This document shows, piece after piece, positions 28,423 to 61,551 of a stretch of DNA of 64,000 nucleotides (its first letter is position 1; each line of letters opens with the position of its first letter). The notes beneath the pieces were generated by a model. It made no database searches. It saw only the letters and a program-made list of their open reading frames with translations, and was not told the DNA's origin. The stretch is taken from NCBI GenBank assembly GCA_043821285.1, contig JBDRCZ010000056.1:792-64791 (forward strand), read 5' to 3'. This DNA comes from Candidatus Omnitrophota bacterium (GTDB lineage: Bacteria; Omnitrophota; Gorgyraeia; B26-G9; JBDRCZ01). A program made the translations under genes and the position numbers.

Positions 28423-31400
28423 TTGTTTAAGCCCTCCTTTCGTCAAAATTTACTGTACTCTCAAAAAACTTGCCTCTTAAACGCCTCTGCATGCAACGAT
28501 CTCAAAACGAATCAATCCCAGATATGGCGGAAAACTTTGTTTACAAGATTAAAGAACCAAAAATTACCAATGGGCGCGTATATCCTGGAGGCAAATGCTT
28601 CGGGTAAAAAAAGCCGGCAGTTACTTCTGGTAAGTAATGCCGCCTGTGTGTTAAAGACATCACCAAGCCAGGCGCTGGTGTATTTTTGCAATGCTAATGA
28701 CGGAGCGCCGATTGCTGATGCCGTGGTTTGCCTTTGGGAGAGATTTTATTCCAATGGGAATTGGCAGTGGATAGAGCAGAAAAAGAATACGGATAAAAAC
28801 GGCCTTTGTGTGTTTGATTTGAAAAGCGCTGATAACCGCAAAGAAATTTTTGCTGCCGCGGTGCGGGAAAATCAGCAGGCGTTTAGCTTAGGCAGCAGTG
28901 ATAATTACCGCAGGAATGATCTGCTGTGGAAAGTTTACGCGTTTTGCGACCGTCCGGCGTACCGGCCGAATGAAACAGTTCAGTGGAAAATTTTTGCCAG
29001 GGCTTATGACCAAGGGGGATATTCTACGCCGGCAAATAAGAAAATCAAATATCAGATTTATGATCCGCGCAATACAAAGATAAAGGAAGAAATGGTCGGT
29101 TTAAATTCCTTTGGCTCTGCCTGGGGTGAGCTTGAGCTTACAGAAGTCATGCCTTTGGGAGAGTACCGGGTGAATTTTTATAGTGTGGAGACCTTGCCGG
29201 GGGGTAAAAAAGAAGAGTATATTGGCAGTGCCGTGCTATTTCGACTGGAAGAATATAAATTGCCGGAGTTTAAGGTAAGTATCAGTACTCCCCTTGAAAA
29301 CGGCAAAAAGAAGATATTTCAAACCGGCGGCATAGTTGAGGCAAAGATTCAGGCGGACTATTATTTTGGCGGGCCGGTGGCGAATGCTGATGTTGAGGTG
29401 CTTGTTTATCAAAACCCGTTTTATCATTTTTGGTATCCAGAGCGCGATTATCCATGGTATTACAAGGATATGCAGACAAGTTATGAGCAATACCGCAATT
29501 ATCGCGGCGGTCAGATAGTAAAACGCGAGCAGATAAAGACAGATGTTCAGGGCAGGGCAATCGTAAAGTTTCAAAGCCCGCAAAACTCAGGCGGGGATTT
29601 TGAATACCGTATTGAGGCGCGGGTCACGGATTCATCACGCCGGGAGATTATTGCGCAGGACACGGTTAAGGTAACCATGCAGGGATATTATGTGTATCTT
29701 AAAAATAAGCATAATCTGATTAAGCCTCAGGATAAGGTAGAGATAGATATTAAAACCCTGGACGCAAATAACCAGCCGTATTTGGCCCAAGGCACGATAA
29801 AGGTGACCCGGGATTATTGGTTTGAAATCTGGGTTGCACCGGACGGCCGGGAAATAAAGGGCCAGGAGCTGGAACTACTGCGAAAAAAACATGAACTCTT
29901 TCCGCCGCAGACATCCTCCGGCAGTAAAGACTGGCAGTTGAAATTCCGCGGCTATGAGCAGGAGGAGATCTTAACGCGCACAATTAAAACCGACGAGCAG
30001 GGCGAGGCAGAGTTTAGTTTTGTGCCGGAACACGAAGGCTATTACTGTGTTAACTGGTACAGTAAAGATAAGCGAAAAAATCCGATCAATGCTCAGACAA
30101 CTGTCTGGGCCGCGGATAATCAGACAACCGAGCTTGGCTACCGGCATGGAGGTGTTGAGATTATTATAGATAAAGACACATTTAAAAGCGGGCAGACCGC
30201 GCCAATAATGTTAAGTGTGCCGGTAAACGACAGATATGTTTTATTCAGCGTAGAGGCGGATGATTTTTACAGCTATGAGCTTTTGCATTTAAAGGGCACG
30301 GTTAAATTTATTGAACTGCCGATTAAAGAGTCTCATGTGCCGAATATTTTTCTCAGCGCGGTAATGGTCAGTGACCAGCAGATATTTATCGATACAAAGC
30401 AGGTGGTTGTGCCGCCGGTTGAGCATTTTATTGATGTTGCGGTAAACGCGGATAAAGCTCAGTACCAGCCGCAGGAATCCGGCAAGTTTTGGGTAATGAC
30501 AAAAGATCACAAAGGTAATCCTGTATCCTGCGAGTTAGCATTAGGGGTGGTGGATGAGTCTGTATATTATATCCAGTCGGATTACGACCTAGACCCCAGA
30601 GAGTTTTTCTACGGGCAGAAGCGGTCTGCTCATATCCAGACCCAAAGCACATTTAATCAGAAAAGTTATATTTGTCTGGTAAGAGGCGCGAATGAACAGC
30701 TTGTTGACGTGCGGTATAAAGGTAACCGGCAGGATTGGAATGAGGAAGGAGATGTAGGTGGTAAATATTCTGCGGTGTCATTAGATGGTCGTTTAGGTTT
30801 TGATGCCTCTACCCTGAGAGAGGTTTGTAAAAGCGAAGTAGCTGTAGAAGAAATGAGTGGCATTAAAAAATGTATTTCTGCCGGCTCGATGGACTTTTAT
30901 GATGATAAAGCAAAAGAGGATTTTGAGCAAAAACCAGTTATAGACAAAAATGGCATTTTTTCACCTTCACAGGGGGCCTCAGCTGCGGTGCAGGTTAGAA
31001 GTGATTTTCGTTCGACAATATTCTGGCAGCCGGATATAGTTACGGATAAAAACGGCCGCGCAGAGGTTGATGTTAATTTTGCGGATTCTTTAACCGCATG
31101 GAAGGCATGTGCACGGGTCTTAAGCCCGGTTAATCAGTTTGGTATTGCTTACACTTCAGTGCGGACTAAAAAACCTTTGATTGTCCGGCTGCAGGCGCCG
31201 CGCTTTTTTGTTGTTGGGGACATGGCAGCAGTATCCGGTGTGATTAATAATAATACGGATGAGAATCTTACGGTCACGCCGGTTTTAAAGGTTAAGGGTC
31301 TGGTTATCAGCGGGCTCTATTCCGGCGGCAGGGTCGTAAAGGGTGAGCAGGGTCCGGTTAAGGTAAAGGCTAATAGCCAAGAGCGGGTTGACTGGGCAAT

Positions 31401-33036
31401 ATCCGTGCAGGAAGTTGGAACGGCAAAAATACAGGTAACTGCACAAGCTGACAAATACGCAGATGTCATGGAAAGGACATATCCTGTATATGAACACGGC
31501 ATGGAAAAATTTATTGCCAGAGCCGGTAAACTGCGCGCGGATGAGGCTGTCTTAACCCTTGATCTGCCTAAAGAGCGCGGTAAGGGGTCAACGATAATGC
31601 AGGTGCAGCTTAGCCCGAGCATGGCAGTTACCATGCTCGATAGCCTGCCGTATTTGATTGATTATCCTTACGGGTGCGTGGAGCAGACCATGAGCCGGTT
31701 TTTGCCGGCAGCAATTTGTTTAAATACGCTTAAAGATTTAGGACTGGATCCGGATACGGTTATGCGTAAAATTTTCGGCGGTATTGAGCCGGCATATACG
31801 GAAAAGACACACAGTAAAGGAAAACAGGATTTAAATAAATTAAATGACATGATTAAAAAAGGCATGGAGCGTTTATATGATTTTCAGCATTCAGACGGCA
31901 GCTGGGGCTGGTGGAAAGAAGGAGAGAGTGATCATTTTATGAGCGCTTATGTTCTCTGGGGGCTTTCGTTAGCGCATCAGGCGCGGGTGGAGGTAAAAAG
32001 AAATATTATTGAGCGCGGAGCCGCTTATTTAGAAAAAGAGATCGTAGAGGAAGAGGACAATTATGATCTTCAGGCATGGATACTGCACGCATTATCTAAT
32101 TACCGCGCGGTCTTTGATAAAGGCCGGGCTAAGGAATTTGAGCAAAAGGCATTGGATAATCTTTGGAAAAACCGGGACAAGTTAAACGCTTATACCCGGG
32201 CACTGCTGTCCTTGTCCGCGCATAATTTCAAAGACGAAGAAAAGGCACGAATTCTGGTACGCAATCTGGAAAACGGGGTAAAGACAGATGATACCCCGGA
32301 CACTTCAGCGATCCAGCGCGGCAGCCAAAAGTCAGAGGAGGCAGTTATTGGTACCGCACATTGGGGAGAGGATGGTATCTACTGGCGCTGGTCAGACGGC
32401 GGGGTTGAGGCAACCGCGTTTGCTTTAAAGGCGCTGGTGACAATAGACCCTGAGAATAAGCTGATTGAGCCGGTAAGTAACTGGCTGTTAAAAAACCGGC
32501 GCGGCAGTCAGTGGAAAAGTACCCGGGATACAGCGATTGTAATCATGGCCTTTAATGATTATTTAAAACAAAGCGGCGAAAGGATTGAGACGGTAATCAC
32601 GATTGAGGCAAAGAATAATTATGAATACCTTGTGTTTGAGGATTTAAAGCCAGCGGGTTTTGAAGCAGTACAGGTAAAAAGCGGGGAGCCGATGTATGCA
32701 AAAGAGCTAAAATCTGCGGCAGTTGAACGGAGTTTTGGCAATACAGTGAAGAAAAAATCCGCGGTTTTAGAATCTAATTCCTTAACCGGTGTACCGTTAT
32801 CTGGTCAGGAGGATACGGAATATACCGGCCGGACCCGCTGGGTATACCAGGAACTACGCGACCGCAAGACAGCCTTATTTATCGATAAACTGCCGGAAGG
32901 GGTTTGGGAAATACGCTATGAATTAAGGGCAGAGGTTCCGGGCAGGTTTCATGTCCTGCCAATAACCGGGTACGCGATGTATGTGCCGGAAATCCGGGCA
33001 AACGGCCAGGAGATTAGGGTTGAGGTGAGTGAATAA
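28423..33036 (+). CDS. Alpha-2-macroglobulin family protein with intact thioester (CVEQ)
   Basis: MG domains, YPYGCVEQTMSRF thioester motif, C-terminal receptor-binding-like domain. TTG start. No signal peptide detected. Confidence 0.85.
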   Translation: MFKPSFRQNLLYSQKTCLLNASACNDLKTNQSQIWRKTLFTRLKNQKLPMGAYILEANASGKKSRQLLLVSNAACVLKTSPSQALVYFCNANDGAPIADAVVCLWERFYSNGNWQWIEQKKNTDKNGLCVFDLKSADNRKEIFAAAVRENQQAFSLGSSDNYRRNDLLWKVYAFCDRPAYRPNETVQWKIFARAYDQGGYSTPANKKIKYQIYDPRNTKIKEEMVGLNSFGSAWGELELTEVMPLGEYRVNFYSVETLPGGKKEEYIGSAVLFRLEEYKLPEFKVSISTPLENGKKKIFQTGGIVEAKIQADYYFGGPVANADVEVLVYQNPFYHFWYPERDYPWYYKDMQTSYEQYRNYRGGQIVKREQIKTDVQGRAIVKFQSPQNSGGDFEYRIEARVTDSSRREIIAQDTVKVTMQGYYVYLKNKHNLIKPQDKVEIDIKTLDANNQPYLAQGTIKVTRDYWFEIWVAPDGREIKGQELELLRKKHELFPPQTSSGSKDWQLKFRGYEQEEILTRTIKTDEQGEAEFSFVPEHEGYYCVNWYSKDKRKNPINAQTTVWAADNQTTELGYRHGGVEIIIDKDTFKSGQTAPIMLSVPVNDRYVLFSVEADDFYSYELLHLKGTVKFIELPIKESHVPNIFLSAVMVSDQQIFIDTKQVVVPPVEHFIDVAVNADKAQYQPQESGKFWVMTKDHKGNPVSCELALGVVDESVYYIQSDYDLDPREFFYGQKRSAHIQTQSTFNQKSYICLVRGANEQLVDVRYKGNRQDWNEEGDVGGKYSAVSLDGRLGFDASTLREVCKSEVAVEEMSGIKKCISAGSMDFYDDKAKEDFEQKPVIDKNGIFSPSQGASAAVQVRSDFRSTIFWQPDIVTDKNGRAEVDVNFADSLTAWKACARVLSPVNQFGIAYTSVRTKKPLIVRLQAPRFFVVGDMAAVSGVINNNTDENLTVTPVLKVKGLVISGLYSGGRVVKGEQGPVKVKANSQERVDWAISVQEVGTAKIQVTAQADKYADVMERTYPVYEHGMEKFIARAGKLRADEAVLTLDLPKERGKGSTIMQVQLSPSMAVTMLDSLPYLIDYPYGCVEQTMSRFLPAAICLNTLKDLGLDPDTVMRKIFGGIEPAYTEKTHSKGKQDLNKLNDMIKKGMERLYDFQHSDGSWGWWKEGESDHFMSAYVLWGLSLAHQARVEVKRNIIERGAAYLEKEIVEEEDNYDLQAWILHALSNYRAVFDKGRAKEFEQKALDNLWKNRDKLNAYTRALLSLSAHNFKDEEKARILVRNLENGVKTDDTPDTSAIQRGSQKSEEAVIGTAHWGEDGIYWRWSDGGVEATAFALKALVTIDPENKLIEPVSNWLLKNRRGSQWKSTRDTAIVIMAFNDYLKQSGERIETVITIEAKNNYEYLVFEDLKPAGFEAVQVKSGEPMYAKELKSAAVERSFGNTVKKKSAVLESNSLTGVPLSGQEDTEYTGRTRWVYQELRDRKTALFIDKLPEGVWEIRYELRAEVPGRFHVLPITGYAMYVPEIRANGQEIRVEVSE

Positions 33037-33726: not shown

Positions 33727-33811
33727 CCAAGGTCAGCGATAAGAATGAGTAATGAAATAACAAGGGGTCGATTCGATAATAGTAATGAAGAGAAAGTCTG
33801 TAGACCTTAAA

Positions 33812-33936
33812 TCCAAATGACAAATCCCAAATGACAAATGGAAAAACTTAAATGTTTTTCTTTTTAAAGATTGAAATATTTAAAGATTCATTTGCCTGTC
33901 TGTCGCAGGCAGGGATTTTGTCATTTGGAATTTGAC
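33812..33936. promoter_or_regulatory. Inverted-repeat / palindromic operator-like region (TCCAAATGACAAATCCC ... GGGATTTTGTCATTTGGA; TGTCA-N9-TGACA) upstream of the hypC-hydE fusion
   Basis: Visible in the sequence, 90-210 bp upstream of 34026. Confidence 0.35.
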
Positions 33937-34025
33937 ATTGCCGGTATATTGCCTTATCAGGCAGTATGCATGTTAATTATAATGAGTTATTAGATGTTGA
34001 TTATATGTTATGGAGCATGAATGCC

Positions 34026-35337: not shown

Positions 35338-35994
35338 ATGAAAGAAAGCGGTAAGAAAAGAGACAAGTTTTCTTTAGAGACGATTAAGCGTTTGGGTCTA
35401 TATCTGCGTAATTTAAAAAAGCTTAAAGCACAAGATATAGACATTATCTCTTCTGATAAATTAACACAATTGCTTAATGTTGCCCCTACGCAGTTTCGAA
35501 AGGATCTGTCCTGCTTTGGCGGGTTTGGGAAGCGGGGAGTGGGATATAATGTAGAAAGATTGATTGAAGAGATAGAAAATATTTTAGGGGTAAATAAAGA
35601 ATGGAAAATTATCATTGTTGGTGCAGGAAGGCTGGGCAGTGCCCTTTTGGGATATGATGGATTTTCTAAGTTTAATATAAAAATAGCCTATGCTTTTGAT
35701 GTCAGCGAGAAGAAGGCGGGGAAGCACAGAAAAGGAATCAAGATTTATAATTTAAAACACATAAAAGAGGTTATAAAAAATAATAATATTAAGATTGCAA
35801 TAATCACTACTCCTGCGGAAGCAGCACAGGATATAGCAGACAAATTAACGTCTACCGGGATAAAGGGCATTTTAAACTTTACCCCGATAATTTTGCAGGT
35901 GCCTAAAGATGTGCTGGTATCTAATGTGGATATGGCTTGCGAGCTTGAGAGTTTAATATTCTTTGCCAAGCAAAGATATATTGGAGATGAATAA
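35338..35994 (+). CDS. rex: Redox-sensing transcriptional repressor Rex
   Basis: Winged-helix N-domain (TIKRLGLYLRNL...QFRKDLSCFGGFGKRGVGYNV) and Rossmann motif IIVGAGRLG. Confidence 0.85.
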   Translation: MKESGKKRDKFSLETIKRLGLYLRNLKKLKAQDIDIISSDKLTQLLNVAPTQFRKDLSCFGGFGKRGVGYNVERLIEEIENILGVNKEWKIIIVGAGRLGSALLGYDGFSKFNIKIAYAFDVSEKKAGKHRKGIKIYNLKHIKEVIKNNNIKIAIITTPAEAAQDIADKLTSTGIKGILNFTPIILQVPKDVLVSNVDMACELESLIFFAKQRYIGDE

Positions 35995-36575
35995 TGGATG
36001 AGGTTACCGGGATAATTCTTGCCGGCGGCAAAAGCACAAGAATGGGCAAAGATAAATCTTTTATCCCGGTGTATGGACGGCCGATTATCGAAATAGTTAT
36101 AGATAAAATATCGTCTTTAACTAGTCAATTATTGATTATAACCAATAAACCGTGTCTTTACCGTAAATATGGCATAAAAACAAAAAAGGACATACTTCAC
36201 GAACACGGCTCTTTAGGCGGGATATATACGAGTTTAGTTTTCTCAAAAACAGTGTATAATCTTATTACCGCCTGTGACATGCCTTTTATAAACATGGAGG
36301 TTGCGCGTTATATGATTAGGATTATGCCGGGGTATGATTGCGTAGTTTTACGATGGCGAAGGAGATTAGAACCTTTATTTGCGATATATTCTAAACATTG
36401 TATCCGGACAATAGAAGACCAGCTAAAAAAGAAAAATTTAAAGATTAGTGATATATTTTCGAACTTAAAGACAAAAATAATCATGGGAAAAGAGATTAGG
36501 CGGTTTGATCCATGTGGCCGTTCTTTTGTAAATATAAATACACGGCAAGATGCCTTGCCATTTTCTGATAGCTGA
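35994..36575 (+). CDS. mobA: Molybdenum cofactor guanylyltransferase
   Basis: GIILAGGKSTRMGKDK nucleotidyltransferase motif and about 190-aa size. Confidence 0.75.
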   Translation: MDEVTGIILAGGKSTRMGKDKSFIPVYGRPIIEIVIDKISSLTSQLLIITNKPCLYRKYGIKTKKDILHEHGSLGGIYTSLVFSKTVYNLITACDMPFINMEVARYMIRIMPGYDCVVLRWRRRLEPLFAIYSKHCIRTIEDQLKKKNLKISDIFSNLKTKIIMGKEIRRFDPCGRSFVNINTRQDALPFSDS

Positions 36576-36580
36576 AGAAA

Positions 36581-36620
36581 ACACGCAGATTATTTAGATA
36601 GTTGTTTTGAAAATAAATAA
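36581..36620. repeat. Degenerate family A element (aaaacacgcagattatttagatagttgttttgaaaataaat)
   Basis: Shares the CAGAT units and the gttgttttgaaaa tail with 3991-4010. Confidence 0.5.
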
Positions 36621-36632
36621 GTTATTAATACA

Positions 36633-36821
36633 CGTATTGCGTATTGAGTATCGAGTATTGAGCATAAAAACTAAAAGGATGACAACAAGAAAATTGCCTC
36701 CGGTGATAACCTTCTGCGATTTTCAGCGGTTAGGAAAGTGTTTTACTTATGCCCGCAAGGGTATAAGGGTATACTTTCCTATACCATAAAAACGCAATAC
36801 TCACGACACAATACACAATAC
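36633..36821. mobile_element. MITE-like element bounded by imperfect inverted termini (GTATTGCGTATTGAGTATCGAGTATTGAGC ... GCAATACTCACGACACAATACACAATAC)
   Basis: The termini are reverse complements of each other. A solo terminus copy (GGGTATTGCGTATTGAG) lies at 45445-45464. Confidence 0.4.
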
Positions 36822-36836
36822 AAAAACTATGATAAT

Positions 36837-37319
36837 ATGTATAAAGTTGCTGTGCTTACAATAAGTGACAGGTGCTCAAAAGGGGAGCAAGAGGATAAAA
36901 GCGGTAAAGTTCTCCATGAGATTGCTGTAGGAATGCCCGCGCAGGTTATAAAATACGAAATTGTTCCGGATGAGCCGGAACAAATTAAAGAGAAACTTAT
37001 CGCCTATTGCGACGAGTTGAAAGTGGATTTAGTGCTTACTACCGGAGGCACGGGTTTAGGTTGTCGGGACTTTACTCCTGAGGCAACGGAAGAAGTTATC
37101 GAAAGAAAAGTCCCCGGCATACCTGAGGCAATGCGTGTTATTTATATAAATATCACAAAACATGCAATGCTATCCAGGGGAATTGCCGGGATCAGAGGAA
37201 AGACTTTGATTGTTAATTTACCGGGCAGCGCTAAAGGCGCCAGGGAGTCTTTGGAAGCAGTGTTCGAAGGTTTACGGCATGGTTTAGAAATGATCGAGGG
37301 AAAAGAACATCATGGCTAA
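36837..37319 (+). CDS. mogA: Molybdopterin adenylyltransferase MogA/MoaB family
   Basis: VLTISDR, LVLTTGGTG motifs and about 160-aa size. Confidence 0.8.
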   Translation: MYKVAVLTISDRCSKGEQEDKSGKVLHEIAVGMPAQVIKYEIVPDEPEQIKEKLIAYCDELKVDLVLTTGGTGLGCRDFTPEATEEVIERKVPGIPEAMRVIYINITKHAMLSRGIAGIRGKTLIVNLPGSAKGARESLEAVFEGLRHGLEMIEGKEHHG

Positions 37320-38682
37320 AGTGATTGATCAGGAACAGATTGGGGATATATTAAAAGAGACAAAAAATCCATCTTTTTCTGAAACCTATGCGGTTATTAC
37401 AAAAGCCGAAGAAAAAAAAGGTCTGAGCCAAAAAGATACCGCGGTTTTATTAAATTGTCAGGATGAAAAAATAATCAAAAATATATTTGATCTGGCAAAA
37501 AAGATAAAGAATGACATATATGGGGAAAGACTGGTGTTATTTGCGCCTTTGTATGTCAGCAATGCCTGCAACAATAACTGCCTTTATTGCGGTTTTCGCC
37601 AGGATAATAAAAATTTTAAAAGAACGACTTTAAACTTTGAGGAAATAGAGCAAGAGGTTAGAATGCTTGAGTCGAGAGGGCATAAGCGCGTTCTTTTAGT
37701 TTCCGGAGAAGCCGTAGGTTTTGATTATTTGCAGAAGGCAATAAAAACAGTTTACCAGACGAAAAACGGGACTGGCGAAATAAGACGGGTTAACGTTAAT
37801 TGCGCCCCCCTTACGGCTGATGAGTTTAAAGAATTAAAAAAATGCGGTATTGGAACTTATCAGCTTTTTCAGGAGACATACCACCGGCCGACTTATACGA
37901 AAATGCATCCTTCCGGACCAAAGGCCGATTATAATAATAGAATTTCTGCGATTGACCGGGCAATTGCCGCGGGGATTGATGATGTGGGAATTGGTGTCTT
38001 ATTTGGTTTATATGATTATCGGTTCGAGATTCTGGGGTTACTTTCGCACATTGCTCATTTAGAAAAAAATTTTGGCATTGGCCCGCATACAATTTCCGTA
38101 CCGCGTCTTGAGCCGGCAGCAGGTTCGGTTGTTTCCGTAAAGCCGCCGTATCCGGTAAGCGACCAGGAACTAAAAAAGATTGTTGCGATTTTGCGTTTAG
38201 CGGTTCCTTATACCGGTATTATTTTATCAACCAGAGAGAATAAAGAGTTAAGGAATGAACTTTTTTCTTTTGGCGTTTCTCAAATCAGTGCGGGTTCTTC
38301 TACCCAGCCGGGCGGATACTCCAAAGAAAAAGGCCTGGAACAATTTTCTTTATCGGATAAGCGTTCAATGTCAGAGGTTATTATTGACGTTTTAAAATTG
38401 GGCTATCTGCCAAGTTTTTGTACAGCCTGTTACCGTCTTGGCCGCACCGGTGAAGATTTTATGGCATTTGCGAAAAAAGGTGAAATACATAAATTTTGCC
38501 TGCCGAATTGTCTGCTTACATTCAGTGAGTATCTTACGGATTACGCAACTAAAGAGGAAAAGATATTAGGAGATAAGGTTATTCGTGAACAGATGGAGTT
38601 TATTCCGCTAACTTCTCTACGCAGAAAAATAGAACACAAATTAGATCTGGTACAATCCGGCAAACGCGACTTATATTTTTAA
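37312..38682 (+). CDS. hydG: [FeFe]-hydrogenase maturase HydG (radical SAM tyrosine lyase)
   Basis: N-terminal radical SAM CNNNCLYCGF. C-terminal CTAC-x22-C (C-x2-C-x22-C) auxiliary-cluster motif that distinguishes HydG from ThiH. Confidence 0.85.
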   Translation: MAKVIDQEQIGDILKETKNPSFSETYAVITKAEEKKGLSQKDTAVLLNCQDEKIIKNIFDLAKKIKNDIYGERLVLFAPLYVSNACNNNCLYCGFRQDNKNFKRTTLNFEEIEQEVRMLESRGHKRVLLVSGEAVGFDYLQKAIKTVYQTKNGTGEIRRVNVNCAPLTADEFKELKKCGIGTYQLFQETYHRPTYTKMHPSGPKADYNNRISAIDRAIAAGIDDVGIGVLFGLYDYRFEILGLLSHIAHLEKNFGIGPHTISVPRLEPAAGSVVSVKPPYPVSDQELKKIVAILRLAVPYTGIILSTRENKELRNELFSFGVSQISAGSSTQPGGYSKEKGLEQFSLSDKRSMSEVIIDVLKLGYLPSFCTACYRLGRTGEDFMAFAKKGEIHKFCLPNCLLTFSEYLTDYATKEEKILGDKVIREQMEFIPLTSLRRKIEHKLDLVQSGKRDLYF

Positions 38683-38862
38683 ATAAAAAGATGTGCCATG
38701 AAGGCGCATCTTTTTATCCGAGAAATTCCGCAACATAACGGAATTTCTTAACGTATGAAAATGCCCCTCTGTTTGCGGAGAAGGAGATTCAGCTGTGTAT
38801 GAGTTTACTTTTCTTTTCTAAAGAAAAGGTAAGTGCTAAATTAGTGCCGAAGGCAATAATTT

Positions 38863-39138
38863 ATGTTAGTTACTGTTAAACTATCTGCACCACTTCAGAA
38901 ATTTACAAAAGGCCGGGCGGAGGTCCGGGCATCCGGGAAAAGTATCCGGGAATTGATAAATAATCTTGAAGAAAAAATCCCGGGGATAAAAGAGAAAATA
39001 TGCGATGAGACGGACCGGCTGCATAAGTTCATCAATATTTATGTTAATGAACAAGACATTAGATTCTTAGAACATGCAGAAACAGTGCTGAAAGATGGGG
39101 ATGAGGTATTAATCATTCCGGCGATTGCCGGCGGATGA
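38863..39138 (+). CDS. MoaD/ThiS-family sulfur carrier protein (C-terminal GG)
   Basis: 91 aa, beta-grasp pattern, ends in GG. Confidence 0.7.
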   Translation: MLVTVKLSAPLQKFTKGRAEVRASGKSIRELINNLEEKIPGIKEKICDETDRLHKFINIYVNEQDIRFLEHAETVLKDGDEVLIIPAIAGG

Positions 39139-39154
39139 TGAAATAAAGGGCTAA

Positions 39155-39214
39155 GATGTAAGTAGTAAGGTGTAAGAAAAACTTATCGCGTACAACTTAC
39201 AACTTACTACTTAC
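39155..39214. other. Long imperfect inverted repeat hairpin between the moaD-like and moeB-like genes
   Basis: GATGTAAGTAGTAAGGTGTAAG ... CTTACAACTTACTACTTAC. Confidence 0.4.
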
Positions 39215-39237
39215 GGCTGAAAAGAGGGTGGTTTTTA

Positions 39238-40053
39238 GTGGGATTAGATCAGGCGCAAATCGAGCGGTATTCAAGGCAGATTATCTTGCCAAATGTTGGC
39301 CGGCGGGGACAGGAAAAAATATTTAAATCAAAAGTGCTGATTATTGGTGCCGGAGGTCTGGGTTCACCTTCTGCCTTGTACCTTGCCTCAGCCGGCGTGG
39401 GGAGTCTGGGTATTGTTGACTCAGACGAGGTAGAGCTTAATAACCTGCATAGACAAGTTTTACATTCCACAAAAACTATCGGCATCGCAAAAGTAAAATC
39501 TGCTAAGCATAGACTTATGTCACTAAATCCTGATGTAAAAACTGTTACTTACAATACCAGAGTTACCGCAGATAATATTTCTAATCTGATTAAGGGTTAT
39601 GATATAATCGTAGATGCATCTGATAATTTCCCCACGCGATATTTAGCAAATGATGTTTGTGTTCTCTCAAAGAAACCATTTTCGCACGGCAGTGTATGCG
39701 AATTTGGCGGGCAGGTAATGACAATTGTCCCGGGGAAAAGTGCCTGTTACCGGTGTTTATTCCCTGAACCCCCGCCACCCGGACGCATGCCCAATAGTCA
39801 GGAAACAGGTATACTTGGTGTGGTTCCGGGTATAATTGGTACAATTCAGGCAAATGAAGTATTAAAATATATTTTAGGTATCGGCAATCTTCTAATTGGC
39901 AGACTGCTGGTGTTTGATGCGCTTAATTCTTCTTTTCGAGAGGTGAAAGTCAAAAGAGATAAAAATTGCATGGTGTGTAGTGAAAAATATCATGATAAGA
40001 AAAAAAAGATAATGCCACGGATTTACACGGATTGGACACGGATAAAAAAATAG
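39238..40053 (+). CDS. moeB: MoeB/ThiF-family E1-like adenylyltransferase
   Basis: GTG start. Rossmann motif IIGAGGLGS and CxxC pair (CYRC). The 3' end of the ORF reads through a family-D repeat (codons MPRIYTDWTRIKK). Confidence 0.8.
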   Translation: MGLDQAQIERYSRQIILPNVGRRGQEKIFKSKVLIIGAGGLGSPSALYLASAGVGSLGIVDSDEVELNNLHRQVLHSTKTIGIAKVKSAKHRLMSLNPDVKTVTYNTRVTADNISNLIKGYDIIVDASDNFPTRYLANDVCVLSKKPFSHGSVCEFGGQVMTIVPGKSACYRCLFPEPPPPGRMPNSQETGILGVVPGIIGTIQANEVLKYILGIGNLLIGRLLVFDALNSSFREVKVKRDKNCMVCSEKYHDKKKKIMPRIYTDWTRIKK

Positions 40054-40148: not shown

Positions 40149-40625
40149 ATGAAGGTGTATCGTTGTCGTATTTGTGGGGAGGTTTATATTGGGGAAGAAA
40201 AACCAAAAAGCTGCCCGTTTTGCGGGGAGCATGAGGCTTATTTTGTTTTAGCAAAGGAGTGGGCGTTATTACATAGTCGCGAGCTGTCAGATATCAGCCG
40301 GAACAATTTAAGAAAGGCATTGGATCTGGAAATAAATAATACGAATTTTTATAAGGCCGCCTCGGGAAAAAGTAAAGATGTCTATTTTTCCAGTATGTTT
40401 AAGGGACTGTCAAAGGTGGAGCGGGAACACGCCTCGACTATTTGCAAGTATTTAAACATTCAAAAACCAGACTCAAACATCAGCTCGGATAAGACAGTTG
40501 ATTTAGGCGCAGATAATGTCAAAGAAGCGAACCGGCGGGAAAGGAGCGCGGTTAAATTCTATGGCGAAGCAATGCAGCAGGCTCCGGAAAAAGAAATAAA
40601 AGATTTCTTCAATATTGGGATATAG
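40149..40625 (+). pseudogene. Rubredoxin-domain plus ferritin-like (reverse-rubrerythrin-like) gene, apparently truncated at the 3' end
   Basis: N-terminal CRIC...CPFC rubredoxin knuckles. Only one ExxH diiron half-site (VEREH) before the stop. The ORF runs straight into the 5'-truncated DUF1016 reading frame. Confidence 0.5.
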
Positions 40626-41517
40626 GTAAACAGATTGTAGAGAAGCAGAGAAAGCTCGGTTGGGGAAAAGCCGTGGTTGAGAATCTGGCAGTTGATTTAC
40701 AAAAAGAATTTCCAGGTATACAGGGGTTTTCCGCGCAAAACCTCTGGCGTATGAAACAATTTTATCAGACTTATAAAAATAATGAAAAACTCTCACCAAT
40801 GGTGAGAGAAATAGGCTGGACGCATAATATGGTAATTATGATGAAGTGTAAAAATGATAACACGCGACAGTTTTATATCGGCATGACTAAAAAGTTCGGT
40901 TGGACTAAAAATATTCTTATTCATCAGATCGAAAATCAATCTTACGAGAAAACGTTTCTTAACCAAACTAATTTTGAAAAGACTGTTCCTATTAAAATAC
41001 GTAATCAGGCGAAACTAGCTGTTAAGGATGAATACACCTTTGATTTTCTTGAATTGGGCGATGAACATCTTGAAAACGAGCTTGAGCGGGCGCTCACGGC
41101 GAATGTGCGGAGATTTTTGCTGAGATGGGCGGCTATTTTTGTTTTGTTGGCAATCAGCATAGAATAGAAATAGACGGTAGAGAATATTTTGTAGATATTC
41201 TCTTGTATCATCGAAAATTACGGTGTCTGGTGGCAGTTGAGCTCAAGATTGGTGATTTTAAGCCTGAGTATGCAGGCAAAATACAATTTTATCTTTCCGC
41301 GCTTAATGATAGGAGTACGTTGAAAGAAGAAAATCCGGCTATTGGGATTATTATTTGTAAAAGCAAAAGCCGGACAGTAGTTGAATACGCCCTGAAAGAT
41401 GTTAATAAACCGATAGGTGTTTCAACCTATACGATCAAAAAATCTTTACCTAAGACGTTAAAGAAATATTTACCTTCATCAAAGGAATTGGCGGCAAGCG
41501 TAACGGTGGTGAAATGA
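40580..41517 (+). pseudogene. DUF1016/YhcG PD-(D/E)XK nuclease family gene, 5'-truncated and with a frameshift near 41140
   Basis: Frame 2 reads YWDIGKQIVEKQRKLGWGKA...FLL. A 1-nt shift is then needed to continue EMGGYFCFVGNQHRIEIDG...IGVSTY (the YhcG-like core). Confidence 0.6.
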
Positions 41518-41850: not shown

Positions 41851-41986
41851 AATGTCTCACCTCGCAGACCGTGAGGAAATTCTTCAACAAGAATTCCCTC
41901 TACGCTCGGTGGGATAAATTCGCACATATCACTTAGCTTCACTACGTTTACTAAGTGATATGTGCTCATTTAAGGAGGGGAGAAAA

Positions 41987-42562
41987 ATGGCAAGTGTAAA
42001 AGGGACAGAGACGGAAAAAAATCTTTTAGCTTCGTTTGCCGGAGAGTCGCAGGCCAGGAACCGGTATACATATTTTGCCGGTGCGGCAAAAAAAGAAGGG
42101 TATGAACAGATTGCCGCGATATTTATCGAAACCGCGGATAATGAAAAGGAACACGCGAAGAGGTTTTTTAAACTTTTAGAAGGCGGCGAGGTGGAGATTA
42201 CCGCCAGTTACCCCGCCGGCGTTATTGGTAATACTGCGGCTAATTTAGCAGAGGCAGCAGCCGGCGAACATCTCGAGTGGACAAAGCTTTACAAAGAGGC
42301 AGAAGCAACTGCGCGAAAAGAGGGTTTTGAAGAGGTCGCGGTTCAGTTTAAAGAAATTGCGGAAGTGGAAGAGGAGCATGAAAAGCGGTACCGGAAACTG
42401 TTAAAAAATGTAAAAGAGGGAAAGGTATTCAAAAAAGATACCGTGGTGAAATGGAAATGCCGCAATTGCGGTTATGTTCATGAGGGTAAAGTAGCACCAG
42501 AAGAGTGCCCGGCTTGTAAACATCCACAAGCTTATTATGAGGTATTGGCAGAGAATTATTGA
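41987..42562 (+). CDS. rbr: Rubrerythrin
   Basis: Ferritin-like diiron domain followed by a C-terminal rubredoxin-like CRNC...CPAC. Confidence 0.85.
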   Translation: MASVKGTETEKNLLASFAGESQARNRYTYFAGAAKKEGYEQIAAIFIETADNEKEHAKRFFKLLEGGEVEITASYPAGVIGNTAANLAEAAAGEHLEWTKLYKEAEATARKEGFEEVAVQFKEIAEVEEEHEKRYRKLLKNVKEGKVFKKDTVVKWKCRNCGYVHEGKVAPEECPACKHPQAYYEVLAENY

Positions 42563-60480: not shown

Positions 60481-61551
60481 ATGAGTGATGCAAAAATACA
60501 AACACTTTGCGGGTTTAGTCGTACTCAAGGCTGTGCATCCAAGATGCGCCGGGCTTTGCTTAAAAAATTAGTTAGTGTTTTGCCCGGAACGATAAAGAAA
60601 AATAAAGACAAAATAATATCTGATTATGATTCATTTGATGATGCGGCTATTTATAAACTAACTGATGAAATTTCCATAGTTTTTACGGTTGATTTTATGA
60701 CACCGGTTACCAATGATCCGGAAAGGTTTGGCCACATTGCCATAGCTAATGCGCTAAGTGACATTTATGCAAAAGGAGCCGCGCCATGTCTTGGCTTAAA
60801 TGTACTTGGCTTTCCTCAAGAAAAAATGGATTTAACAATTGTTGAACGAATTCTAAAAGCTGGCTTTGCTAAGGCTGAAGAAGCAAATGCACATATAGTT
60901 GGCGGACATACGCTAAATATATCTGAATTTATTTATGGTTTGGCGGCAATAGGTTTTGTTAAAAACAATGAGATTATTCTTAACTCTGGAGCATATAAAG
61001 GGGATGTATTGTTACTTACAAAACCACTGGGGACGAACGTAGTATTAACATTAGCAAATAGAGCAGGCGTTGATGTAGGTTCGGATATTCTTGAAGAATG
61101 TCTTGATTCAATGTGCCAGCTAAATATTATACCAGACATGTTAATGAAAGAAGCCAAGATCAGTGCGTGCACGGATATTAGCGGATATGGATTTATCGGC
61201 CATTTAGCACAGATGTTAGAAGCGAGTAAACAGAAAGCAATAATTTATTCTGCCCAAATCCCTGTAATTAAGAAATCTTTAGATTTTTATAATATGGCCT
61301 ATCGTGCTTGTTCGGTAGAAGCAAATAAAGCGGATTATTCAGATTATGTTCAGTTTACTAATTCAGTGTCACCATCTTTAAGAGATTTATTATTCGATGC
61401 CCATACTTCAGGAGGATTACTAATGTCAGTTCCGGAAAAAAATAGCAAAGTACTTTTAGAAAAACTTCAGCAAAATAAATTTATACATGCTGCTATTGTT
61501 GGCAGGGTTATAGGACTTGATGAACAGGAAAGTTTAATCAAAATAGAATAG
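60481..61551 (+). CDS. selD: Selenide, water dikinase (selenophosphate synthetase), Cys-type
   Basis: N-terminal GFSRTQGCASK (Cys at the Sec/Cys position) and AIR-synthase-like fold motifs across the full length. Confidence 0.85.
   Translation: MSDAKIQTLCGFSRTQGCASKMRRALLKKLVSVLPGTIKKNKDKIISDYDSFDDAAIYKLTDEISIVFTVDFMTPVTNDPERFGHIAIANALSDIYAKGAAPCLGLNVLGFPQEKMDLTIVERILKAGFAKAEEANAHIVGGHTLNISEFIYGLAAIGFVKNNEIILNSGAYKGDVLLLTKPLGTNVVLTLANRAGVDVGSDILEECLDSMCQLNIIPDMLMKEAKISACTDISGYGFIGHLAQMLEASKQKAIIYSAQIPVIKKSLDFYNMAYRACSVEANKADYSDYVQFTNSVSPSLRDLLFDAHTSGGLLMSVPEKNSKVLLEKLQQNKFIHAAIVGRVIGLDEQESLIKIE

Follow-up and report, generated by a model that had tools for sequence, protein, structure and literature searches.

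We analysed a 64-kb window (the whole stretch of DNA considered here) derived from a contig of a Candidatus Omnitrophota metagenome-assembled genome (MAG), with the focus on a gene cluster located between 33.5 and 38.7 kb. This cluster encodes a short HypA, a fusion of HypC with a HydE-like radical SAM barrel (HypC::HydE), the repressor Rex and HydG, with two molybdenum cofactor (Moco) genes, mobA and mogA, between rex and hydG. We consider it moderately probable that the region is a displaced copy of a conserved, non-canonical cassette for the maturation of [NiFe] hydrogenases, in which a Rex-linked radical SAM route would provide the Fe-CO/CN unit. The original prediction, made from the window alone, had assigned HydG and the HydE-like protein to [FeFe] hydrogenase maturation, but the related loci point in a different direction. 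The HydE-like gene encodes a HypC-fused paralogue which, in relatives, occupies the 3′-terminal part of [NiFe] operons, following HycI and HypA, and which in two loci (L033 and L051) stands beside a separate canonical HydE. Judged by gene neighbourhood, the context of the cassette is [NiFe], not [FeFe].

Distribution and synteny of the cassette

The context of the window was taken from homologous loci (labelled L001, L004, etc.). A scan of one genome per GTDB species revealed the fusion in at least 406 species genomes, mostly of Omnitrophota, and also of Margulisiibacteriota/Saganbacteria/WOR-1, Brevinematales/Spirochaetota, Auribacterota, Elusimicrobia, WOR-3 and others. Neighbourhoods were counted by tblastn on the 80 best species loci with 10-kb flanks (the denominators vary between counts). 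This analysis revealed that the core order hypA, hypC::hydE, (rex), hydG is repeated in dozens of species, far beyond chance.

A gene for HycI is located directly upstream of the fusion in 68 of 78 loci, and a [NiFe] large subunit is encoded upstream in 57 of 66 (41 group-3b-like and 16 group-4). These large subunits are ordinary: the motif RxCGxCxxxH is present in 60 of 61, and DPCxxC with a C-terminal extension for the protease in 59 of 61. Rex follows the fusion directly in 29 of 71 loci. A downstream HydG is found in 36 of 62 loci when the limit is set at 3.5 kb, and in 34 of 45 when it is set at 10 kb. The closest relatives (62-72% identity) carry Mrp-Mbh-type or group-3b-like NiFe genes, HycI, an 80-amino-acid (aa) HypA, the fusion, in some cases Rex, and HydG. 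A relative from Margulisiibacteriota contains a group-3b-like [NiFe] hydrogenase, HycI, HypA, the fusion and HydG.

Published surveys give indirect support, obtained with genomes that differ from those analysed here. No [FeFe] hydrogenases were found in Saganbacteria (PMC6349859), and the Ace Lake Omnitrophota MAGs contain one hydrogenase each, either NiFe of group 3b, 3d or 4g, or FeFe of group A3 (PMC8542988). Three Saganbacteria/WOR-1 loci of our set (L039, L046 and L074) have the order NiFe-HycI-HypA-fusion-HydG; L038 and L072 contain the same genes up to the fusion, and HydG was not detected in these two loci. A baseline for hypD adjacency from a further study (PMC12727194) was unusable, its queries having included the hyp genes themselves.

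The HypC::HydE-like fusion protein

The fusion consists of (i) a HypC β-barrel with the Met-Cys2 start (MCYAIPG), (ii) a long linker helix and (iii) a HydE-type TIM barrel with the sequence CTQGCMYC, and it carries a family-specific NSCCVHG motif. The AlphaFold2 model (pLDDT 89.5, pTM 0.90) predicts one compact protein, in which five strands (residues 7-52) make up the HypC barrel, followed by the long helix and the TIM barrel. Foldseek superposed the latter on HydE of Thermotoga maritima (TmHydE) with a root-mean-square deviation of 1.5 Å and a TMt of 0.93. In comparisons with PDB entries the fusion scored 232 bits against TmHydE and 37 bits against HypC (2Z1C). Against the HydE model TIGR03956 it reached 241 bits, below the equivalog cutoff of 254.6; the HypC part passed PF01455 (46.2 bits; gathering score 28.5) and stayed under the cutoff of TIGR00074 (39.3 versus 48). 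Residues M316 and M384 align with M224 and M291 of TmHydE, and R402 takes the position of its K309. In the T. maritima enzyme, Met224, Met291 and K309 hold or relay Fe(I)(CO)2(CN) species (PMC11826987).

Homologues of the fusion number in the thousands, and the best 120 all combine HypC with a radical SAM domain in approximately 433 aa. The N-terminal HypC is present in all 62 aligned homologues, with MCYAIPG invariant. All fusions, including divergent ones (42-50% identity), lack the auxiliary CX7CX2C motif; N(S/A/C)CC(V/I)HG immediately precedes their radical SAM loop, and their last residues are LGRAPTDLG. The standalone HydEs of L033 and L051 possess both the auxiliary CX7CX2C and the (V/I)HxRA segment of T. 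maritima HydE. The gene order in L051 is NiFe, HycI, fusion, Rex, an [FeFe] HydABC-type operon, HydG and standalone HydE, while L033 contains hydF-hydG-hydE and then a NiFe operon ending in the fusion. Since a canonical HydE shares the locus with the fusion in both cases, the fusion is not simply the HydE of the cell; by its sequence features it is a distinct, HypC-fused HydE paralogue.

As a member of the HydE family, the protein has the fold, the CX3CX2C motif and the Met pair, but it does not reach the score cutoff and does not have the standalone form of about 350 aa accompanied by HydF, HydG and HydA. As a member of the HypC family, it has Met-Cys2, the barrel and the Pfam score, but no neighbouring HypD. 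HmdB, a HydE/BioB-like radical SAM protein in the synthesis of the FeGP cofactor of [Fe]-hydrogenase (Hmd), is a precedent for a HydE-like enzyme outside the [FeFe] class. The HmdB model is a weak match of the fusion (60 bits, far below HydE) and, in contrast to the Hmd system, the cassette is accompanied by neither hcg genes nor Hmd, and its hosts are bacteria with NiFe enzymes.

HydG

The window HydG shares approximately 60% identity over its full length with HydG of Thermoanaerobacter italicus (4WCX, 530 bits). It contains (i) the radical SAM motif CNNNCLYC, (ii) the C-terminal auxiliary-cluster motif CTACYR-x22-C and (iii) the His of the dangler Fe, aligned with 'LYH' of the T. italicus protein.

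The HydGs of related loci separate into two clades. Clade II is canonical and comprises the HydGs of the PDB, the window HydG, copies located by [FeFe] operons and many copies directly following the fusion. Clade I proteins (approximately 499 aa; L001:11981-13480 and about 25 other related loci) have an N-terminal extension of about 35 aa and the C-terminus CTAGYRCGRTGxC...FC, in which the second Cys of CX2C is gone and two new Cys are gained. They follow fusion-Rex in Omnitrophota group-4 NiFe loci and are found within hydF-hydG-hydE in L033. The auxiliary cluster of clade I HydG may be bound in another way, or the synthon made by these enzymes may differ.

The window cassette is of mosaic composition. 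HypA, the fusion and Rex share 68-72% identity with their counterparts in L001, whereas its HydG is 45% identical to the clade I HydG of L001 and 68% identical to that of L088. Each of the four examined HydGs that are closest to the window protein stands in a NiFe-maturation context, i.e. NiFe-HycI-fusion-HydG in L088 and L091, fusion-HydG in L090, and HydG-HycI-HypA in L089. The last of these is a hydG-hycI-hypA operon (L089:10001-12161) with overlapping hydG and hycI and a full-length HypA of 111 aa; no hydrogenase or fusion was seen in the 14 kb covered. The fusion-HydG pair of L090 (L090:6710-9383) comes from a contig whose MAG bears the label Candidatus Undinarchaeota (DPANN archaea); either the cassette extends to archaea or the contig was mis-binned.

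HypA and the canonical maturation partners

The HypA of the window keeps the N-terminal Ni-binding MHE (MHESH). It matches only positions 1-68 of the 112 of the PF01155 profile and scores 56.5 against TIGR00100 (cutoff 88). An alignment with full-length relatives and with HypA of Escherichia coli shows a clean gap of approximately 39 aa in place of the Zn-finger module (CxxC...CxxC). Orthologues of 80 aa are present in L001, L004, L005 and L006, and the module is absent from HypA in 46 of 78 loci, including the window.

HypD, HypE, HypF or a second HypC were not found in approximately 1.4 Mb of flanks (10 kb on either side), and neither the window nor any of 86 related loci contained a match for HypD. 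As a positive control, the same tblastn approach detected HypB in two loci and hypC in an E. coli control locus. HypB and a full-length HypA occur together with the fusion in L083 and L022. HydF is encoded nearby in one of the 80 loci, HydA in seven and a standalone HydE in two.

Like canonical [NiFe] maturation (E. coli hyp/hyc), the cassette includes HypA and a HypC module whose essential N-terminal Cys is retained; in relatives these genes, together with one for a HycI-type protease, stand at the ends of operons whose large subunits carry standard CxxC motifs and a cleavable C-terminal extension. It differs in that its neighbourhoods lack HypD, HypE and HypF, HypC is fused to a HydE-like barrel, HydG usually follows, HypA often has no Zn-finger and HypB is rarely nearby.

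Rex and redox control

The window Rex (NF003995, 263 bits, cutoff 126; NF003993, 241 bits, cutoff 217) is 71% identical to the Rex at the equivalent position in L001. In many group-3b loci of relatives, a TTGTGAA-N4-TTCACAA box with no or one mismatch immediately precedes the first gene of the hydrogenase, and such a box is often found ahead of rex as well. Given these boxes, redox control of the NiFe operon and the maturation genes is plausible in the relatives. Rex regulons of anaerobic bacteria that include hydrogenase genes are alike in this respect, with rex embedded in the cassette and canonical boxes upstream of NiFe operons and of rex. The window differs from them: no operator with up to three mismatches was detected between 33 and 40.7 kb. 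Elsewhere in the window there are 12 three-mismatch matches, compared with a chance expectation of 6.25 ± 2.4.

Proposed maturation route

In the proposed route, HydG would cleave tyrosine and build an Fe-CO/CN synthon on its auxiliary cluster, a chemistry established in this family and assumed to apply here. This synthon would be taken over by the HydE-like barrel of the fusion, which would strip the cysteine scaffold from it by radical chemistry, and the Fe(CO)(CN) unit could then pass to Cys2 of the attached HypC domain, perhaps via the fusion-specific Cys-Cys-x-His motif. HypC, in its known role, would put the unit into the apo form of the large subunit of a group-3b-like or Mrp-linked group-4 [NiFe] hydrogenase. 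HypA would supply Ni and the HycI-type protease would complete maturation (both genes are adjacent in relatives). The route would replace the work normally done by HypD, HypE and HypF, while Rex, as the operators upstream of the relatives' hydrogenase operons suggest, would link expression to NADH/NAD+. In the present genome the cassette would have been parted from its hydrogenase, its HydG swapped for a canonical-type copy, and mobA and mogA inserted between rex and hydG.

A broader claim is that such a pathway, independent of HypD, HypE and HypF, uses HydG and the HypC-fused HydE-like barrel to make the Fe(CN)2(CO) unit of [NiFe] hydrogenases from tyrosine, and that it is at work in some 400 species or more, belonging to Omnitrophota, Margulisiibacteriota/Saganbacteria, Spirochaetota, Elusimicrobiota and other phyla. 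We put this forward tentatively, as a possibility that falls somewhat short of being probable.

Several points weigh against the proposed route. The known product of HydG is Fe(CO)2(CN), whereas the [NiFe] site needs Fe(CO)(CN)2, and the route leaves this step in ligand stoichiometry unexplained. The fusion retains both of the Met residues that are proposed to bind a pair of Fe units for their dimerisation in HydE, and these would suit a 2Fe product of the [FeFe] type equally well. No HydG was found within 10 kb in 11 of 45 loci. In seven loci an [FeFe] operon is located between rex and hydG or nearby, and L033 carries hydF-hydG-hydE, so that some of the HydG adjacency may reflect the clustering of two hydrogenase systems. 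The absence of HypD, HypE and HypF and the rarity of HydF and HydA refer to the 10-kb flanks. The window itself has no hydrogenase, HycI or Rex box, and a function of the cassette there would rest on orthology. The proposal as a whole is built on sequence and predicted structure.

Alternative explanations

According to one alternative, to which we assign a modest chance of being correct, hydG and the HydE domain are ordinary [FeFe] maturases whose HydA is encoded elsewhere, the HypC domain works for a NiFe enzyme with canonical HypD, HypE and HypF that likewise have their genes elsewhere, and the fusion and the clustering reflect no more than co-regulation of the two systems by Rex. The window HydG is indeed a full member of the H-cluster maturation system (HydE, HydF and HydG), indistinguishable from canonical HydG in its identity to the T. 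italicus protein and in all its motifs, and the fusion barrel keeps the HydE fold and the equivalents of the catalytic Met224 and Met291. HydA is located nearby in the seven loci already mentioned, the hydF-hydG-hydE genes of L033 adjoin the NiFe operon, and Rex is followed by the [FeFe] operon, hydG and hydE in L051. However, in these last two loci the separate canonical HydE stands beside the fusion, and the cassette usually lacks HydA and, with one exception among the 80 loci, HydF. The HydE-like domain scores under the HydE cutoff, lacks the CX7CX2C cluster motif, has an invariant CCxHG where HydE has (V/I)HxRA, and is bounded by the LGRAPTDLG end and the N-terminal HypC; the partner HydG of some relatives (clade I) departs from the CX2C pattern as described above. 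The fusion follows HycI/HypA in 68 of 78 loci from several phyla, and the hydG-hycI-hypA operon of L089 joins HydG to the same genes. Moreover, Saganbacteria, reported to be without [FeFe] hydrogenase, carry both the fusion and HydG, and no HypD is located beside any fused HypC.

It is also conceivable, but unlikely, that the fusion, with or without HydG, supplies only a part of the NiFe cofactor, e.g. the CO ligand, while HypD, HypE and HypF encoded elsewhere give the cyanides and the scaffold. This explanation shares its link to NiFe operons with the complete radical SAM route, the problem of ligand stoichiometry vanishes, and the presence of HypB and full-length HypA with the fusion in L083 and L022 indicates that canonical Hyp parts can be combined with it. 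Against it, the 80 neighbourhoods contain no HypD, HypE or HypF, although HycI and HypA are present, and HypC, which normally acts as a HypC-HypD complex, is here covalently joined to a radical SAM barrel.

Molybdenum cofactor genes and transcript structure

The complete radical SAM route, which we prefer to both of these explanations, assigns no role to the Moco genes. The MobA-like protein has its best matches with MobA models, all under the equivalog cutoffs (132 versus 164 and 92 versus 152), and passes only the general domain model PF12804 (NTP_transf_3). The other three proteins pass their family models: MogA reaches 122.8 bits with TIGR00177 (cutoff 85) and 114 bits with PF00994, MoaD 51.8 bits with TIGR01687 (cutoff 49.5) and 64 bits with PF02597, and MoeB 273.8 bits with NF004281 (cutoff 266) and 282 bits with PF00899. 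No molybdoenzyme, moaA, moaC, moaE or moeA was found in the window.

The original prediction had placed all eight genes, from hypA to moeB, in a single Rex-controlled transcription unit with overlapping or closely spaced genes. Close spacing was confirmed at three junctions: the fusion stop and the rex start are 10 nt apart, rex and mobA overlap by 1 nt (TAATG), and mogA (end at 37319) and hydG (start at 37312) overlap by 8 nt, as stated in that prediction. Elsewhere the gaps are long (hypA-fusion, 299 nt; mobA-mogA, 261 nt; hydG-moaD, 180 nt; moaD-moeB, 99 nt) and, with a terminator after hydG and no Rex box, the single unit was not borne out; it is unlikely that the eight genes form one operon. 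The hypA-fusion spacer, which in the closest relative L001 measures 36 nt, contains two stable hairpins (-32.4 kcal/mol, z = -3.5), the first of which is located after hypA (33891-33913), is followed by a T run and resembles a terminator, and also a promoter-like site (33954-33983). The hydG terminator (38683-38717) is far more stable than shuffled sequences (mean -4.9 kcal/mol, z = -6.98). Since it directly follows hydG, moaD and moeB lie outside the hydG transcript, and moaD is probably a separate transcription unit.

Two repeats were noted in the spacers. A short direct repeat (CCAAATGACAAAT / CCAAATGACAAAT) is located in the long hypA-fusion spacer (33800-33975). The moaD-moeB spacer (39152-39225) holds a near-perfect hairpin of approximately 20 bp, formed by repeats of the GTAAG/CTTAC type (-25 kcal/mol, z = -3.3), and a let-7 match obtained from this hairpin in Rfam was sub-threshold and rejected as spurious. 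No Moco riboswitch or other Rfam family reached its gathering score in the long spacers; MALAT1, like let-7, was a sub-threshold, spurious match.

A functional coupling of the Moco genes to the cassette, such as the formate hydrogenlyase-type pairing of a Mo/W formate dehydrogenase with a group-4 hydrogenase, corresponds to the link between hydrogenase and Mo/W enzyme suggested in the original prediction and appears quite improbable. It draws on the translational coupling of rex/mobA and mogA/hydG in the window and on the Moco clusters that flank the cassette in L006/L050, L023 and L013 (with moeB in L030). Nevertheless, only 4 of 80 species loci have Moco genes at a distance of up to 10 kb from the cassette, which approximates the chance placement of a few Moco clusters in a genome of 1-2 Mb, and their position and gene content vary by lineage. 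None were detected beside the four nearest HydG relatives examined, and mobA is absent between rex and hydG in all related loci. The window contains neither a molybdoenzyme nor a Moco riboswitch, and moaD and moeB are situated past a strong terminator. In our reading, the HydG exchange was accompanied by a lineage-specific insertion or rearrangement that brought in mobA and mogA, and moaD and moeB are mere neighbours beyond the terminator.

The idea that the protein encoded at 37312-38682 is ThiH and forms, with the ThiS- and ThiF-like proteins encoded downstream, a thiamine thiazole module has a negligible chance of being correct: ThiH is its second-best model, but it scores 318 bits with TIGR02351 (cutoff 380) against 520 bits with the HydG model TIGR03955 (cutoff 312), its match to ThiH structures is 205 bits, it carries a C-terminal CX2CX22C domain of about 90 aa that ThiH lacks, no thiG was found in the window, and the terminator separates hydG from the ThiS-like gene. 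The ThiH identity is ruled out by the family scores and the C-terminal domain; family scores, PDB scores and the C-x2-C-x22-C tail all agree with the HydG assignment of the original prediction.

Gene map and neighbouring genes

The gene map (Table 1) was obtained from scans with hidden Markov models (curated family cutoffs and Pfam) and from reading of the start regions, which gave corrected starts for HypA (33484, MHE...), the fusion (34026, MCYAIPG), rex (35338) and mogA (36837). The eight genes are all located on the + strand in the predicted order, and the fusion, rex, HydG and genes of Moco type were recognised as predicted.

Table 1. Features of the maturation cassette and the adjoining Moco-type genes in the 64-kb window
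Feature	Coordinates	Strand	Supporting match or property
Short HypA, 80 aa	33484..33726	+	PF01155 56.9 bits
hypA-to-fusion spacer, 299 nt	33727..34025	+	two stable hairpins, promoter-like site
HypC::HydE-like radical SAM fusion, 433 aa	34026..35327	+	PF01455 46.2 bits, PF04055 67.6 bits
Rex, NADH/NAD+-sensing repressor, 218 aa	35338..35994	+	NF003995, NF003993
MobA-like molybdenum cofactor guanylyltransferase, 193 aa	35994..36575	+	PF12804 109 bits
MogA/MoaB-type molybdopterin adenylyltransferase domain protein, 160 aa	36837..37319	+	TIGR00177, PF00994
HydG, 456 aa, canonical type	37312..38682	+	TIGR03955 520 bits
Intrinsic terminator, 15-bp stem then U run	38683..38717	+	-20.3 kcal/mol
MoaD/ThiS-family sulfur carrier, 91 aa, C-terminal GG	38863..39138	+	TIGR01687, PF02597
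MoeB/ThiF-family adenylyltransferase, 271 aa	39238..40053	+	NF004281, PF00899

Pfam scans of all open reading frames (ORFs) of at least 120 aa detected no hydrogenase structural gene and no HydF in the 64 kb, and tblastn with NiFe large and small subunits, HydA, HydB and the HydF C-terminus gave no match in the window outside the cassette, in agreement with the predicted absence of hydF and hydrogenase genes. HycI, HypB, HypD, HypE and HypF are likewise missing from the window. A candidate HypE of the AIRS family (60481-61551) was rejected; it is SelD (290 bits versus 54 bits for HypE) and the only AIR-synthase-family gene of the window. The presence of SelD (selenide, water dikinase) implies that the organism uses selenocysteine or selenouridine.

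Directly upstream of the cassette, where relatives carry the hydrogenase operon, there is an ORF of 1537 aa (28423-33036) with a GCVEQ thioester-type motif, resembling α-2-macroglobulin. Just downstream of the cassette region, two genes of the rubrerythrin family (40149-40625 and 41960-42562) were identified, the first with an N-terminal rubredoxin-like domain (reversed order); the pair suggests an oxidative-stress module beside oxygen-sensitive maturases. A YhcG/DUF1016 gene for a PD-(D/E)xK nuclease (40673-41517) is broken into two overlapping ORFs (40673-41167 and 41125-41517) and is probably a frameshifted pseudogene or an assembly error. The remainder of the window contains housekeeping genes. 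Every credible gene between positions 1 and 64000 is on the + strand, and each of the 32 2-kb bins shows a positive GC skew (0.10-0.27). It appears that the entire contig belongs to a single replichore, with extreme co-orientation of its genes.

Significance

Full-text literature searches turned up neither a report of a HypC::HydE fusion nor one of HydG acting in NiFe maturation. Such genes are currently annotated as 'HydE', 'biotin synthase', 'radical SAM protein' or 'HypC', and HydG taken as a marker of [FeFe] hydrogenase can mislead the metabolic reconstruction of candidate phyla. The maturation machineries of [NiFe] and [FeFe] hydrogenases are held to be unrelated, and the anaerobic source of the [NiFe] CO ligand is still an open question. 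The cassette described here is a concrete candidate for a tyrosine-derived, radical SAM route to the [NiFe] cofactor. If this proposal is true, the two main classes of hydrogenase would be connected through their maturation machineries, and the cassette could provide a smaller gene set for the heterologous production of such enzymes.

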